DNA of 64,000 nt from an uncultured Phycisphaerales bacterium (lineage in GTDB: Bacteria > Planctomycetota > Phycisphaerae > Tepidisphaerales > Tepidisphaeraceae), in the NCBI GenBank assembly GCA_963758525.1, contig CAVWVQ010000003.1, positions 3,552,001 through 3,616,000 of the forward strand. The letters run 5' to 3'. Under the pieces are notes generated by a model. It made no database searches, was not told the origin of the DNA, and was given only the letters and a program-made list of their open reading frames with translations. Below are positions 18,492 to 50,188 of this stretch, in pieces. The translations under genes were made by a program, and so were the position numbers. The first letter of the stretch is position 1, and every line of letters begins with the position of its first letter.

Positions 18492-19705
18492 GTACTCCAG
18501 CGCGCTTTGTTTGATGACTCGCGCTCTCGCTTTTTAGACGGTATGCTTTAGGCATGGTCCAAGCAAGGAGGCAACCATGTTGAAGGCTAACGTTGTGTCT
18601 TTGACCGGCGAGCAGCGAGAGGAATTGAAGCGGATCAGTCGTTCTGGAAAAAGTTCCGCACGAAGGGTGGTTCGAGCGCGGATCCTGCTCAAGAGCGACA
18701 TCGGAGAGACCGATCAGGAGATCTCCGAGGCGCTGGATGTCGGCGTGGCAACGATCGAACGCGTCCGCAGAAAGTTTGCCGCTGGCGGAATAGAGGCTGC
18801 CATCGAATCGGGTCCGCAGCCGCCGCGTCCGCAGAAGCGGCGGTTGGATGGCGAGGGCGAAGCCAAACTGGTGATGCTCGCCTGCAGCAGGCCATCCGAC
18901 GAACATGGGCATTGGACGCTGGATTTGCTGGCCGGCCAGATGGTGAAGCTGAACTACGTGCCGGCGATTTCCGGGGACACTGTCGGTCGGGTTCTAAAAA
19001 AAACGAAATCAAGCCCTGGCTGAAGGAAGAATGGTGCATTCCGCCCGATGCCAGCGGCGAGTTTGTCTATCGCATGGAGGATGTTCTGGAGGTTTACAAG
19101 CGGCCTTATGACCCGCTGCGGCCGGTGGTGGCATTGGACGAAAAGCCTCTGCAAATCCTCTCGGACACGCGCAAGCCGATCCCTTGTGAACCCGGCAGTT
19201 CGGCCAAGCAGGACCACGAGTACAAGCGTAACGGAACCGCGAACATCTTCTGTGCCGTCGAACCACTGGGAAACTTTCGCCGCCTGGAATTGACCGAGCG
19301 CCGGACCAAGCTGGACTTCGCCCATTTCGTCAAGGACCTGGTCGATACGCGGTACAAAGACGCACAGAAGATCGTGCTGGTGATGGACAATCTCAACACG
19401 CACAGTCCGGCCAGTTTCTACGACGCTTTTTCGCCCCAGGAAGCACGGCGTCTGACGGAAAAGCTGGAGATCCACCATACGCCCAAGCACGGCTCATGGC
19501 TGAATGTGGCAGAGATTGAACTGAGCGTCGTCGGACGCCGACTGCGTGATCGATGTGACAACATAGAAGATCTGGCCCGGCAATTGGCAGCAATCGAACG
19601 AGATCGCAACCAAGCCGCCAAAGGCGTCGATTGGCAATTCACTGTCGACAAGGCACGGATAAAGTTGAAACGGCTCTACCCATCATTCGAAATGCGGTAG
19701 ACTAC
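18492..19705 (+). mobile_element. IS630-family insertion sequence
   Basis: Ends CTAGTACTCCAGCGC and GCGGTAGACTACTAG (12/15 inverted match), TA within CTAG on both sides. Confidence 0.88.
18577..19700 (+). CDS. IS630 transposase, two ORFs joined by a probable programmed -1 frameshift
   Basis: HTH ORF then DDE ORF (ALDEKP, EYKRNGT, MDNLNTH, HGSWLNVAEIE); A8 run at 18996-19003 gives LKKNEIKPW. Confidence 0.9.
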
Positions 19706-19707
19706 TA

Positions 19708-19974
19708 GGCTCTGTCTGAAAACCCTAAGTCCTCACGACGGCTCAGAATGGCTTTGGCCGCTAGGCGCCCTGGCGACATCAGGGTCCGTAGACCCTTTGA
19801 GCCGGGGCAACGACGCGGACGAAGCCATTCTGAGCCGCCTGCGGTGGGCCGGATTCGATCCGCCTGCTTCATTGCCGCCCCTTGATGGCTCTACGGAGCC
19901 GGACTGCGGGGCGACGCCTCGCAGTCGAATCGAATCCGGCCCATCGTGAGGGCTTAGGGTTTTCAGACAGAGCC
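19708..19974. mobile_element. MITE (267 bp, non-autonomous)
   Basis: 34-bp terminal IR including flanking CTAG (CTAGGCTCTGTCTGAAAACCCTAAG(T/C)CCTCACGA), one mismatch; two internal IR pairs; no credible ORF. Confidence 0.85.
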
Positions 19975-20009
19975 TAGGAGACTGCGAGACCGATTCGGCG
20001 GACAACGGG

Positions 20010-21090
20010 GTATGGCGGGATTCATCCCGCCGACTGACTTTTCACCGAAACACGTGGCGGGATGAATCCCGCCCTACAAACTGCGGACCTTTGTTCGCCG
20101 CGCAGACGGTCCGCAGAAGGGCGACGGTGCTCGTGCGCGGATTCGTGTTCATTGGGCGCCCTCCTGCGGACCCTACGGCACTGAAAAACTGACGCAGCGC
20201 AGCGCTATTCCGCAAACATCGGCCAAATACGAGCGAAAGAAGCGAGATCAAGAGCACTCACTCGAAAGTGGCGAATGGCTCCGAGTAGGGCGGGATTCAT
20301 CCCGCCGATTTGTTGGCCGGCCGAGAAAACGGCGGGATGAATCCCGCCCTACCACCGCAAAGATCCGCAATCACCACAAAAGTTACACCCGTCCGCGGAA
20401 GAGCTGCCGGTTGATACATCGTTCGTGCGAATGCTTTTCTACGGACCTTTGTACACCGCACAAAGGTCCGCAGGAGGGCGACGCGCATTCTCGGGCTTCG
20501 TGCCTATTTGCGCGCCCTCCTACGGACCCTACGCAACTGGGGTGTTGCGCTCGAAAGTGGCGATGGCGCCGAGTAGGGCGGGATTCATCCCGCCGATTTG
20601 TTGGCCGGCCGAGGAAACGGCGGGATGAGTTCCGCCCCTCCCATCGCAAAGATCCGCAATCGCCACAATTAAAAGTTATCCCCGTCCGCGGAAGAGTTTC
20701 CGGTAATACATCGTTCGTGCGAATGCTTTTCTACGGACCTTTGTACACCGCACAAAGGTCCGCAGGAGGGCGACGCGCATTCTCGGGCTTCGTGCTTATT
20801 TGCGCGCCCTCCTACGGACCCTACGCAACTGGGGTGTTGCGCTCGAAAGTGACGATGGCTGCGAGTAGGGCGGGATTCATCCCGCCGATTTGTTGGCCGG
20901 CCGAGAAAACGGCGGGATGAATCCCGCCCTACCACCGCAAAGATCCGCAATCACCACAAAAGTTACACCCGTCCGCGGAAGAGCTGCCGCTTGATACATC
21001 GTTCGTGCGAATGCTTTTTACGGACCTTTGTAAACCGCACAAAGGTCCGCAGGAGGGCGACGCGCATTCTCGGGCTTCGTGCTTATTTTT
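20010..21090. repeat. REP array with ~290-bp tandem units
   Basis: Units start at about 20354, 20643 and 20934 (last partial); each holds family A doublets and GGACCTTTGT/ACAAAGGTCC and GGAGGGCG/CGCCCTCC hairpins. Confidence 0.88.
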
Positions 21091-21273
21091 AGCCCTGCCT
21101 GTTTTAAGATGCTCTTTAAAGTTTCGGGCGGCACCTCCTTCGAAAGTTTGCCGCCGCCGGAATCGATCACCGTCCCTGCTTCTCGGGTGCCGACACTGCA
21201 TATGACTCCCCACAGTTCGCGTGAGACGCCATCCGTTCGCCTCGATCACTTTGATGATGTCCCGGTATTTCAT
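21085..21273 (-). pseudogene. hicA: HicA-family toxin, frameshifted, with no hicB
   Basis: MKYRDIIKVIEANGWRLTRTVGSHMQCRHP then, in another frame, GGKLSKEVPPETLKSILKQAGL; the 3' end abuts the repeat array. Confidence 0.75.
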
Positions 21274-27096: not shown

Positions 27097-27324
27097 GTGG
27101 ATTACTCGCACCTCATCACAATCGAGGCGGAGAAGCGGAGCGGGCAGGCATGTATCCGCGGCCTGCGCATCACCGTTCGCGATGTGCTTGAGTACCTCGC
27201 CTCCGGAATGTCCAGCGAGGAAATTCTCGGCGATTTTCCTGATCTGACCGCGGATGATATCCGTGCATGTCTGGCATTTGCGGCTGAGCGAGAACGGCGG
27301 CTGTGGGTTGTGCCCGCCGCATGA
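27097..27324 (+). CDS. DUF433 antitoxin-like protein
   Basis: ITIEAEKRSGQACIRGLRITVRDVLEYLASGMSSEEILGDFPDLTADDIRACLAFAA. Confidence 0.9.
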   Translation: MDYSHLITIEAEKRSGQACIRGLRITVRDVLEYLASGMSSEEILGDFPDLTADDIRACLAFAAERERRLWVVPAA

Positions 27325-47471: not shown

Positions 47472-47684
47472 TGCGGGGGATTGTAATGCGGGGATTGGGG
47501 GATGCCAGAAGGGGGGGAGAGGCAGGAAAAGACAAAGGAACGAAGGCACGGAGGCACGAAGGCACGAAGGGGAGGACGCTGCGCGGCGGCGGAGTGTATG
47601 TACTTCTTCCTGCCTTCCTTACCCTTCGTGCCTTCGTGCCTATGTGCCTTCGTGCCTTTCTCATTCTTCCCTCAATTTTGTTCT

Positions 47685-47713
47685 TGCAATTTCATGATTG
47701 GTTGGCAATAATT
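47685..47713 (+). promoter_or_regulatory. Putative sigma70 promoter of the tRNA array
   Basis: TTGCAA-N17-AATAAT in an AT-rich patch. Confidence 0.5.
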
Positions 47714-47780
47714 CAACCTTAGCTTCGTTTGTGTCGAAAGAGGTAACGTGCAACACTTGAGAATAACTATTAGCAGGGCC

Positions 47781-47991
47781 TGCCGGAAATCGCTTCAAGA
47801 GCGATTCGTCGGCATGGATCGACGCCCAGCGCACTGACTCCTCGCCTTTTCGGCCGGGAGTTCTTCCCGGCTGCCTGACACTTTTTTTTGTGATGCCCGG
47901 GAAGAATTGAATCGCAGCCGCGATCGCGCTGGCGGGCGTTCTTCGTTTTGTGGCTCGAAATGTCGGGGAAACAGGCGTTTCCCATTCGGAG
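47781..47991 (+). ncRNA. Candidate structured RNA leader of the tRNA array
   Basis: Several complementary stems forming a hairpin, a multibranch domain and a second hairpin; no family recognised. Confidence 0.4.
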
Positions 47992-47998
47992 ATACTGC

Positions 47999-48070
47999 GC
48001 GCTGTTAGCTCAGAGGAAGAGCATTCCGTTGATAACGGAAAGGCCGGAGCGTCGAGAACTCCACGGCGCA
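47999..48070 (+). tRNA. tRNA-Ile(GAT), atypical T arm
   Basis: GCGCTGT/ACGGCGC acceptor; TTCCG-TTGATAA-CGGAA; T loop GTCGAGA. Confidence 0.6.
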
Positions 48071-48073
48071 TAC

Positions 48074-48147
48074 GCATCGATGGTCCAAATGGATAGGGCG
48101 CCGGACTACGAATCCGGACGATGGAGGTTCGACTCCTCCTCGATGCA
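48074..48147 (+). tRNA. tRNA-Arg(ACG)
   Basis: GCATCGA/TCGATGC; CCGGA-CTACGAA-TCCGG; GGTTCGACTCC. Confidence 0.88.
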
Positions 48148-48201
48148 TTAGGTTGAGGCGAACTATGGAACTCAGACGAAAACGGTGCTTCTGCAACTAG
48201 A

Positions 48202-48275
48202 GCACCGGTAGCTCAACGGAACAGAGCAGCTCTCTTCTAAAGAGCTTGATGGGGGTTCGAATCCCTCCCGGTGCA
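48202..48275 (+). tRNA. tRNA-Arg(TCT)
   Basis: GCACCGG/CCGGTGC; GCTCT-CTTCTAA-AGAGC; GGTTCGAATCC. Confidence 0.9.
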
Positions 48276-48296
48276 TCGCAGCCTGCGGGCTGCCGC

Positions 48297-48369
48297 GCAC
48301 CGATAGCTCAACCGGCAGAGCTGCCGGCTTTTAACCGGAAGGTTGCGGGTTCGACTCCTGCTCGGTGCA
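48297..48369 (+). tRNA. tRNA-Lys(TTT)
   Basis: GCACCGA/TCGGTGC; CCGG-CTTTTAA-CCGG; GGTTCGACTCC. Confidence 0.88.
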
Positions 48370-48371
48370 AA

Positions 48372-48445
48372 GGTTCGTTAGCTCAGATGGACAGAGCGCC
48401 GGCTTGTCACGCCGAAGGTCACGGGTTCGATCCCCGTACGGACCG
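48372..48445 (+). tRNA. tRNA-Asp(GTC)
   Basis: GGTTCGT/ACGGACC with G73; CGGC-TTGTCAC-GCCG; GGTTCGATCCC. Confidence 0.88.
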
Positions 48446-48456
48446 CTGAAGAAAAC

Positions 48457-48530
48457 GGGAGCGTAGCTCAGCAGGCAGAGCGGGGGCCTCATAAGCCCCA
48501 GGCCGTTGGTTCGAATCCAACCGACTCCCA
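48457..48530 (+). tRNA. tRNA with CAT anticodon (Met or Ile2), bulged acceptor stem
   Basis: GGGGC-CTCATAA-GCCCC; GTTGG-TTCGAAT-CCAAC; acceptor GGGAGCG vs CGACTCCC. Confidence 0.75.
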
Positions 48531-48552
48531 TGTGCGCATGCGAAGAACGTCC

Positions 48553-48659
48553 CGTACCACGGGTTTCCAACCCGTGCGAGCAGCGCCAGAAGAAAGAAAT
48601 TAGTATTACCGGGCATTGGTCTACCACGCCAACTGCACGGGTTGGAAACCCGTGGTACG
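48553..48659. repeat. REP doublet family D (GTACCACGGGTTTCCAACCCGTG)
   Basis: Inverted pair; second locus at 53765-53860. Confidence 0.8.
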
Positions 48660-48676
48660 GTGTGTACGGGTGAATC

Positions 48677-50188
48677 ATGGCAGACGAATCGGAAAACTCC
48701 TCATCGGCGATCATCCCCACGGGCGAAGCGACGGGATTTCTGCCGGTGCGCAACGGCGCCGGCGGGAAGCCGATCACCGTCATTGGAACGCAGGCAATCC
48801 GCGACACGTTCGATTCGGTCTGTCTTCAACAGGCGATCAACTCGCGTCTGGCCCCGGGCGTCACGGATGTCGTGCTGAATCCCGATGCTCACCGCGGATA
48901 CGGCGCTCCGGTCGGGTCGGTGATCGTTTCGCCCACGCATATTTACCCGGGGCCGGTCGGAGTCGACATCAAATGTTCGATGAGCCTGTTGCAGTTCGAT
49001 CTTCCGGCCGAGGCAGTGGCGGGAGAGAAGATTCGCCGTGCGCTGATCAATGCGATTTTGGAGCGGACGCCGACCGGCGCGGGCAAGGGACTGCGCGACG
49101 CGCGCAAGGCGCGCCGCGTGAGTCCGCAAATCGGCAAGATGGCGGTGGTGGAAGGGGCTTCGCCGGCGGTCTGCGCTGCGCTGGGAGTTCCCGCGGAGTG
49201 GGCGTCGCGCTGCGAAGACGCGGCTCACGTCGGACACGACGACACGCCTGACGCTTTGGCGATGCGCCTTGATCGCATGCTTGCCAATGAACCGCGTGGC
49301 AAGTTCGAGTCGAGAATGAGCCAGATCGGAAGCTATGGCGGAGGGAATCACTTTGGCGAATGTGAGATCGTGCAGGTTGCCGACGACGACAGCATGCGCG
49401 CGGTGGCGGATGTGTTTGGCCTGCGCGACGGGCACGTCGCGTTTCTCTCGCATTGCGGGTCGCGCGGTTTCGGACATCAACTGGCAAGCGGTCAGTTCCG
49501 CTCGTTGCAGGAACGGTTTGCCAAGTGGTCCATCCCGCTGCCGGGAAATGATCGCGAGCTGGTCTACGCGCCGCTGGGAACTCCCGAGGCCGATGCGTAC
49601 ATTGACGACATGAGCCTGGGGGCGAACTTCGCAACGGTCAACCACATGGTGATCAATGCGCTGGTGCTCGAAGCATTCCAGGAAGTGATTCCGGGTGTGA
49701 CGGGCCGGCTCGTCTATTTCATCAGCCACAACATTGCGCGAAAGGAAGTCGTCGACAACCGGATTGCGTGGGTTCATCGCAAGGGAGCGACGCGCGCGTT
49801 CCCGGCGGGGCATCACGCGCTGAAGAACACGCCGTTCGCCCAGAGCGGGCATCCGATCCTGCTGCCGGGGAATCCGCGCGAAGGGTCGATCGTGATGGTT
49901 GCGCGCCCCGAGGCGGCCAAGAGCGTCTACAGCGTCAACCACGGCGCCGGCCGGCGTCTGGGCCGGCGCGATGCGATTCGCAAGCTGGATCAGGCCGAGG
50001 TGGACGCGGGCCTTGCCGAGTGCGATGTGATGAGCAATTGCCGGCAATATCCGAAGGACAAAGCGCCGGATGCGTATAAGGATTTTGGCGAAGTCGTGCG
50101 GTCGGTAGAGCTCGCAAAGCTGGCGCGCGGCGTCGCGCGGCTCAAGGCGCGGTTTGTCATTAAGGATTCATCGGACGCTGATGATTGA
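48677..50188 (+). CDS. rtcB: RtcB-family RNA ligase
   Basis: NPDAHRGYGAPVG, VGVDIKC, GGGNHF, HCGSRGFGH, SHN, HRKGATRA, HGAGR, AP.AYK. Confidence 0.92.
   Translation: MADESENSSSAIIPTGEATGFLPVRNGAGGKPITVIGTQAIRDTFDSVCLQQAINSRLAPGVTDVVLNPDAHRGYGAPVGSVIVSPTHIYPGPVGVDIKCSMSLLQFDLPAEAVAGEKIRRALINAILERTPTGAGKGLRDARKARRVSPQIGKMAVVEGASPAVCAALGVPAEWASRCEDAAHVGHDDTPDALAMRLDRMLANEPRGKFESRMSQIGSYGGGNHFGECEIVQVADDDSMRAVADVFGLRDGHVAFLSHCGSRGFGHQLASGQFRSLQERFAKWSIPLPGNDRELVYAPLGTPEADAYIDDMSLGANFATVNHMVINALVLEAFQEVIPGVTGRLVYFISHNIARKEVVDNRIAWVHRKGATRAFPAGHHALKNTPFAQSGHPILLPGNPREGSIVMVARPEAAKSVYSVNHGAGRRLGRRDAIRKLDQAEVDAGLAECDVMSNCRQYPKDKAPDAYKDFGEVVRSVELAKLARGVARLKARFVIKDSSDADD

Follow-up and report, generated by a model that had tools for sequence, protein, structure and literature searches.

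Planctomycetes are listed among the carriers of L-arrays, that is, arrays of supernumerary tRNA genes, in the available text of PMC8421152, which also describes the array of Anabaena PCC 7120 as induced by translation stress, with rtcB co-regulated. The repressor of the Anabaena trn operon is named TrcR, and a slipin gene is placed in the TrcR regulon, in the corresponding part of PMC10272220. Among the literature compared here, as far as these texts extend, control of cryptic tRNA arrays was previously described for Anabaena and assigned to a repressor. We have analyzed a locus in a 64,000-nucleotide stretch of DNA (the window) from an uncultured Phycisphaerales bacterium (GenBank assembly GCA_963758525.1, contig CAVWVQ010000003.1, positions 3,552,001 to 3,616,000), at which a leader containing a short upstream open reading frame (uORF) precedes six spare tRNA genes and a gene for the RNA ligase RtcB. 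It is likely that this leader, the codons of which match the array, opens the spare tRNA genes when a ribosome stalls for lack of the array's own tRNAs. The putative codon-matched uORF attenuator, which is conserved in one planctomycete family, is in our opinion the most interesting part of the locus.

As in L-arrays, the spare isodecoders here form an array that adds to a housekeeping set, and SPFH genes are likewise present. L-arrays comprise about 25-43 genes and are non-periodic, whereas the studied array has six, the genome holding blocks of 6, 15 (plus two partial), and 3 genes. Unlike the Anabaena array, the studied one is distributed over three chromosomal blocks, each with a leader of its own, and where the texts available for Anabaena place a DNA-binding repressor at promoter repeats, this locus has a putative cis-acting uORF switch matching the anticodons of the array. 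Attenuation is not mentioned in the main texts of PMC8421152 and PMC10272220, and the word "leader" occurs 0 times in that of PMC8421152. A literature search at title and abstract level, with subscription papers mostly outside its range, returned no report of codon-matched leader-peptide attenuation of tRNA genes.

The leaders thrL, ilvL, hisL, and trpL are multivalent leader-peptide attenuators of amino-acid operons, and the present leader resembles them in having uORF codons that would register the supply of the operon's products and in its predicted four-segment alternative pairing. It differs in preceding tRNA genes rather than genes for biosynthetic enzymes, in having no U-tailed terminator, and in that the entire uORF, which ends before segment 1, would be the sensor, its codon content being rewritten as the array changes. 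In the available text of PMC12360218, which lists hisL among leader attenuators, complete translation of the uORF in mgtL/mgtA and corL/corA refolds the leader toward Rho termination, and stalling leads to read-through. Similar logic, in which complete uORF translation favors termination and stalling favors read-through, may apply here; mgtL and corL, however, sense Mg2+ and head transporter genes, whereas this leader heads tRNA genes and its Rho dependence is deduced from RNA composition and the presence of Rho.

The uORF and the conserved core of the leader

A sigma70-like promoter (47684..47712, plus strand; -35 at 47684-47689, -10 at 47707-47712) matches the search pattern at 9/12 positions and is the single plus-strand site among three found on both strands (0.8 expected), in agreement with the one promoter-like site reported when the letters of this DNA were read without database searches (hereafter the sequence-only reading). 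The conserved leader element sits downstream of this promoter. A Shine-Dalgarno (SD)-like sequence (47739..47743, +), recognized from the sequence, precedes a uORF of 29 codons plus stop (47748..47837, +) with a GTG start and a TGA stop. Directly after the stop lies the C-rich attenuator segment 1 (47838..47846, +; stop spacing and folding), followed by a conserved 19-nt core (47852..47870, +; core comparison and folding) that contains segments 2 and 3, the former able to pair with either segment 1 or segment 3. Segment 4 (47897..47906, +), which pairs with segment 3, was placed by folding about 25 nt after the core.

Searching with the core gave 158 distinct matches, 114 of which have an array and 29 of which lack a uORF, being chance matches, incomplete ends, or cases in which the stop is not adjacent. 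Fifty-one matches have complete arrays and an SD sequence, and the uORF peptides of these 51 leaders diverge so far as to form 36 clusters at 50% identity, which were the clusters tested. An SD-led uORF of 18-48 codons that ends 0-4 nt before segment 1 is present in 99/110 tRNA-bearing leaders, as against 0.73±0.85 in shuffles; the distance from stop to segment 1 is 0-4 nt in 108/108 leaders, which were selected for such a uORF, and 0 nt in 76 of them. The promoter-like pattern is found in 64/108 non-redundant leaders and also precedes both paralogous leaders of the genome. The uORF, its fixed place at the switch, the three copies heading non-overlapping shares of the tRNAs, and the codon match are all directly seen.

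An Rfam search of the leader at E values up to 5 gave two chance-level matches and no family. As the whole 279-nt leader folds no better than shuffles (z -1.47), its importance lies in the uORF and the switch. The leader of about 280 nt that the sequence-only reading called structured is therefore borne out in that a switch and a uORF are present, and not as regards its fold as a whole.

Codon content of the leaders and the arrays behind them

In the studied uORF, 10/28 codons are cognate to the array and 6/6 tRNAs are covered (by AGA/AGG, ATA/ATG, ATT, AAA, CGA/CGC, and GAT), whereas the two paralogous leaders cover only 2/6 and 1/6 of the same tRNAs. The leader of the third block (Thr-CGT/Tyr/Trp) covers 3/3 of its own tRNAs, for which the other two leaders score 0/3; the large block discriminates less, with 11/15 for its own leader versus 9 and 8 for the others. 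As judged from sequence comparison, leader codon content also tracks array content across relatives. In the 21 reduced arrays (of the 36 clusters, complete arrays only), 97/102 tRNAs have a cognate codon in their leader versus 69.0±4.5 upon permutation, the cognate codon fraction being 0.269 versus 0.179 permuted, and removing the clusters of the studied genome leaves 88/93 tRNAs covered versus 63.3 permuted. Part of the match is at the codon level, because redrawing synonymous codons covers fewer tRNAs (88.7±2.6 versus 97 for the real leaders, p 0.001; cognate count 167 versus 158, p 0.046). In a held-out set of 36 clusters with partial arrays, retained tRNAs have a codon in 163/217 cases (137.1±6.2 permuted), whereas tRNAs lost within the observed span have one in only 74/184 (110.8±6.5 permuted). 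Kinship was handled by clustering and by pairing; since the genomes are kin, the permutation p-values overstate the effect. When leaders are paired by nearest non-coding similarity, which is a weaker test, 14/18 pairs go in the expected direction (p 0.015). An internal ATG is present in 11/11 leaders whose array holds a tRNA-CAT, and ATA in 5/11. Two arrays from different genera that consist of tRNA-Gln have Gln-rich leaders, namely L141, which is complete (9/28 codons), and L396, in which the contig ends after the first tRNA.

Several observations weigh against a strict correspondence. The leader of L159 covers only 1/2 tRNAs, that of L129 has 1 cognate codon in 28, and near-identical leaders head arrays ranging from 9 to 28 tRNAs. 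Arg-CGN codons are present irrespective of tRNA-Arg(ACG) (14/14 leaders with it, 10/10 without), most single-anticodon tests are not significant, and the remaining 4/18 leader pairs go in the wrong direction. In addition, 10/108 leaders have no detected tRNA behind them, although several of these loci end early.

These exceptions bear on the best surviving alternative, which is that the uORF switch is a general sensor of translation stress, responding to ribosome drugs or global slowing, with the codon match being secondary, or a by-product that trails behind the erosion of arrays, and shortage of a single tRNA not being the main signal. Such a sensor would suit full arrays, which have pan-amino-acid leaders able to answer any slowing: in nine near-full arrays, the leaders use 18.7 distinct amino acids, versus 13.3 in open reading frame (ORF) windows and 14.5 in base shuffles. 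It would also accommodate clusters in which leaders lag behind tRNA loss, the unrelated pan-codon leader of the same genome that heads one tRNA-CAT and an SPFH gene (see below), and the induction of the Anabaena array by ribosome antibiotics in general that is described in the available text of PMC8421152. A general sensor, however, would not need codons to be depleted for lost tRNAs and enriched for cognate ones, nor would it place leaders rich in Gln or Ala ahead of tRNAs for these amino acids or give the parts of a three-way split three differently spelled leaders. We consequently rate this explanation as unlikely, and prefer the view that the leader responds to shortage of the tRNAs encoded behind it. 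For either, the inducible translation-stress module of the sequence-only reading holds to the extent that leader architecture points to conditional expression linked to translation stress; the uORF attenuator itself had been missed.

Spare-tRNA blocks and the neighboring rtcB gene

tRNA genes were called by ARAGORN with default settings and by Rfam, a relaxed ARAGORN run having been dropped because its calls were mostly false. Rfam finds six plus-strand genes in the studied block, with the anticodon order and common strand of the sequence-only reading: spare copies of tRNA-Ile(GAT) (47999..48070; Rfam, 55.6 bits), tRNA-Arg(ACG) (48074..48147), tRNA-Arg(TCT) (48202..48275), tRNA-Lys(TTT) (48297..48369), tRNA-Asp(GTC) (48372..48445), and an elongator-type tRNA-CAT (Met or Ile2; 48457..48529). 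ARAGORN calls the last five and misses tRNA-Ile(GAT), which has an atypical T-loop. All six (6/6) also have a housekeeping isodecoder elsewhere in the genome, at 55-76% identity, and are thus extra copies, as had been suspected. That they lack an encoded CCA is correct but not special, because none of the 82 ARAGORN tRNA calls genome-wide (0/82) shows one.

Two paralogous leaders were found by profile search, so that the genome has three homologues, each heading a spare-tRNA block. One block (C3:3764011-3766477) has 15 tRNAs, partial remnants of Val-TAC and Leu-CAA genes, and an internal small ORF; the other (C3:44047-43672) has the Thr-CGT, Tyr, and Trp tRNAs. The anticodons of the three blocks do not overlap. 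In relatives, about 28-30 such genes form a single array whose order is conserved, and each of the three blocks is a subset of it that largely retains this order, so that the six-tRNA block is a fragment of a spare tRNA array of the L-array type. On sequence grounds, we infer that the three blocks arose by duplication with reciprocal loss from one ancestral array that held about 30 tRNAs. The three blocks have counterparts in metagenome loci L200, L182, and L233, with L200 being syntenic with the window.

The 19-nt core matches 43/141 genomes of the order, and a covariance model matches 52/141, its weakest matches including false ones; in a sample of the class, the core is present in 13/63 genomes of the family versus 2/337 in other families. 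Among the matches listed, at least 10 titled loci have an array behind the leader, and these belong to Tepidisphaeraceae (8) and Phycisphaerales (2). A broad pattern scan was too loose, most of its at least 117 stretches being chance matches without tRNAs. The viral scan gave 8 matches, all to one unrelated hairpin-plus-U-tract without uORF or tRNAs, and the plasmid scan gave only short tRNA-level matches and no leader copy. Among the sequencing runs listed for this DNA, none is an RNA run, and one DNA run has a share of 0.06. Translation and repair genes are recruited repeatedly, since other arrays carry EF-Tu inside or behind them (9/158 matched loci: L134, L154, L155, L163, L224, L233, L237, L192, and L161) or an Rnl2-like RNA ligase within them (PF09414, with the PF21189 OB fold in L155 and L193; L155, L193, and L179, 3/158).

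Some further observations concern the arrays and spare tRNAs. L163 consists of tRNA-Val(TAC) and EF-Tu, and L233 of EF-Tu and the Thr/Tyr/Trp genes. ORFs of about 280 amino acids without a Pfam match lie near Gln genes in the arrays of L128 (4042-4899), L142 (3370-4212), L145 (2246-3088), L211 (2750-3571), and L236 (1967-2803). Gln-rich leaders are also seen in L175, where tRNA-Gln follows, and in L220, where no tRNA was detected in 1.4 kb. Outside the three blocks, the genome has solitary extra tRNAs for Cys-GCA, a second Arg-CCT, and Arg-TCG (C3:890237-890307, 358272-358346, and 1635945-1636018) and a degenerate tRNA-Asn copy at C3:765290-765472, directly upstream of the housekeeping tRNA-Asn.

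Behind the studied array lies a repetitive extragenic palindrome (REP)-like inverted repeat pair (48558..48654, no strand assigned; arms 48558-48576 and 48636-48654), identified by repeat matches and folding. This REP doublet, which had been noticed in the sequence-only reading, is real: it folds as a long hairpin (z -5.4), the genome has 49 matches to one of its orientations and 31 to the other, and a similar pair also precedes rtcB in the syntenic relative L200. The rtcB gene itself (48677..50188, +) encodes a 503-residue protein (Pfam RtcB, E 3e-100) that is the sole Pfam RtcB match in the genome, and is likewise real. Metal ligands and the nucleophilic His are conserved (D97, C100, H225, H259, H351, and H422; residue roles taken from the available text of PMC9745838). 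Residue 462 (window 50060-50062) is Lys in this assembly and Glu in 25/25 readable orthologous loci and in the Pyrococcus enzyme; for a role of this Glu, the residue numbers searched are not mentioned in the available text of PMC9745838.

Homologues of rtcB at E < 1e-30 occur in 34/141 genomes of the order, and the leader core is found within 1.5 kb upstream of the orthologous rtcB in 0/29 loci. A Y-RNA-like motif precedes rtcB in 14/29 loci, and Rfam confirms YrlA in 9/12 loci chosen for the motif. Among 15 extended rtcB loci, mostly chosen for the Y-RNA motif and including the same-genus genome G096, Ro60 is present in 13 and RtcR in 12; L336 was excluded from this comparison. Orthologues of the studied RtcB, mostly about 70% identical, thus sit in the RtcR-controlled Rsr (Ro60)-YrlA-rtcB operon in many relatives, whereas the studied gene follows a tRNA array and RtcR, Ro60, and YrlA were found neither beside it nor elsewhere in the genome (91% complete), which extends the earlier statement that no rtcR or Ro60 is adjacent. 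Because these components of the relatives' operon were not found here, rtcB has probably moved from RtcR control to the tail of the studied array. As a separate observation, tRNA genes lie upstream of rtcB in L322, L326, L327, L330, and L332, in or beside Ro60/Y-RNA operons, with five such genes in L326.

The sequence-only reading had cast the locus as a dedicated replace-and-repair operon, in which six tRNAs that are ribotoxin targets and RtcB were selected jointly as an anti-ribotoxin unit. The interval from the last tRNA to rtcB yielded neither a promoter-like nor a terminator-like site, for which reason co-transcription is plausible from the sequence; the long REP hairpin, however, intervenes. 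The order is kept in L200, whose flanking genes are about 80% identical at the DNA level, three related arrays contain an RNA ligase that belongs to a different family, and rtcB neighbors L-arrays in cyanobacteria according to the available text of PMC8421152. On the other side, rtcB follows a leader-headed array at only 2/158 matched loci, the studied one and L200, many loci being short; both belong to the 51 complete arrays. This survey, together with the 0/29 result, does not uphold the tRNA array with rtcB as a general module, and linkage to rtcB as a family trait was rejected on the basis of the 2/158 loci. The Lys in place of the otherwise constant Glu also argues against a unit selected for repair.

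Enteric VapC cuts fMet tRNA. The studied CAT tRNA, however, is paired at the first acceptor position and shows its lowest identity to the initiator (59%, versus 69-73% to the two elongator CAT genes), and so is not this fMet tRNA. The division of an ancestral array of about 30 tRNAs, with its order conserved, into three non-overlapping parts explains the six anticodons better than a choice of ribotoxin targets does. Enrichment of such targets was rejected as the reason for the six: Tyr, His, Asn, and Arg-CCG tRNAs are targets of colicins E5 and D, and these sit in the other two blocks. Of the toxin genes named in the sequence-only reading, a scan of 33 small ORFs among the 68 non-overlapping ORFs of the window confirmed a HicA-like fragment (20932-21273) and a DUF433 gene (27097-27321), and not PIN or HEPN genes; these two and a DDE transposase gene lie within 19074-21273 and 27097-27321, more than 20 kb from the array. 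Joint selection as an anti-ribotoxin unit is, in sum, improbable, whereas a link between replacement and repair remains plausible as a local matter.

Predicted alternative pairing and a proposed termination mechanism

Folding without a ribosome at the stop codon gives dominant helices 1:2 and 3:4 in 103-106 of 106 leaders, and covering the stop region makes 2:3 dominant in 61/106. Some observations tell against the proposed switch. With the stop covered, 3:4 still wins at equilibrium in 43/106 leaders, all three from this genome among them (P 0.68-0.89), which means that the switch has to depend on timing during transcription. Helices 1:2 and 3:4 show no two-sided covariation, and the one cell in 2:3 is not above shuffles; core covariation is not to be expected, because the strands serve two helices and the set was chosen by exact core sequence. 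Pairs flanking 3:4 are Watson-Crick more often than in shuffles (40 versus 24.8, 36 versus 21.4, and 48 versus 31.6 of 103), but only these flanking pairs covary, in a test that kinship inflates. Divergent leader copies vary mostly within the 2:3 loop.

A U-tract (at least 5 T in 8 nt) follows the core in just 15/98 leaders, so that these are not canonical intrinsic terminators. In the 2:3 state, the RNA that stays unpaired has 37% C and 12% G, and two Rho-like genes are present (C3:4358004-4359239 and C3:3994036-3995112), the second scoring 412 bits, below the curated cut-off. Because no U-tract follows, the exposed RNA is C-rich and G-poor, and Rho is present, termination would probably be Rho-dependent. 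The ON/OFF polarity and the Rho dependence are deduced from folding and composition, and this counts against the mechanism as a whole. A fourth locus (C3:4473536-4473167, minus strand; in L318) has an unrelated uORF whose 36 codons specify 18 different amino acids and whose end is able to pair with the 5' arm of a terminator with a U tail, ahead of an extra tRNA-CAT and the SPFH/slipin gene; this attenuator points the same way as regards polarity. The idea that the uORF and hairpins act post-transcriptionally, on precursor processing or stability, or in transcription-translation coupling rather than on termination would fit the absence of a canonical intrinsic terminator and the long, stable 3:4 stem, with segment 4 able to lie within tens of bases of the first tRNA, but is highly improbable given the presence of Rho and an attenuator geometry in which helices are mutually exclusive and the stop is fixed 0-4 nt from segment 1.

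The attenuation mechanism that we favor would operate as follows. With the ribosome upstream or absent, segments are predicted to pair 1:2 and 3:4, hiding both pyrimidine-rich strands, whereas a ribosome on the stop codon would cover segment 1 and allow 2:3 to form. This might happen during transcription, before segment 4 exists, in which case timing would decide the outcome. The 2:3 state would be OFF, with termination probably brought about by Rho on the exposed C-rich, G-poor RNA, and a ribosome stalled in the leader would permit read-through into the tRNA genes. Since the outcome depends only on whether the ribosome reaches the stop, stalling at any codon would suffice, and one leader could thus watch many tRNAs. 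Shortage might arise from tRNA cleavage, undercharging, undermodification, or ribosome drugs. The rtcB gene is likely to have been added to the array within this lineage and would be induced along with it, in place of the control by RtcR, Ro60, and Y RNA that relatives have.

A broader proposal, which we hold to be evenly balanced between right and wrong, is that Tepidisphaeraceae maintain a second set of tRNAs, controlled by a self-sensing attenuator with a leader that serves as a codon barcode of the array and is rewritten upon tRNA loss. In the studied lineage, this set would have been triplicated and partitioned into three modules, each detecting and refilling its own subset, and the same cis-acting sensor would have taken rtcB over from RtcR/Ro60/Y-RNA. 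The leader core constitutes an RNA family absent from Rfam, with more than 100 copies found, and three paralogous blocks in one genome offer a test system with internal controls. The leader would in addition serve as a simple, programmable detector of damage to tRNAs, such as that caused by anticodon nucleases. It would represent a second, protein-free mode of controlling cryptic arrays with built-in specificity, in that leader codons predict which shortage opens each block. If the broader proposal is true, these planctomycetes would control their tRNA pool by feedback at the level of the anticodon and couple this control to tRNA repair.

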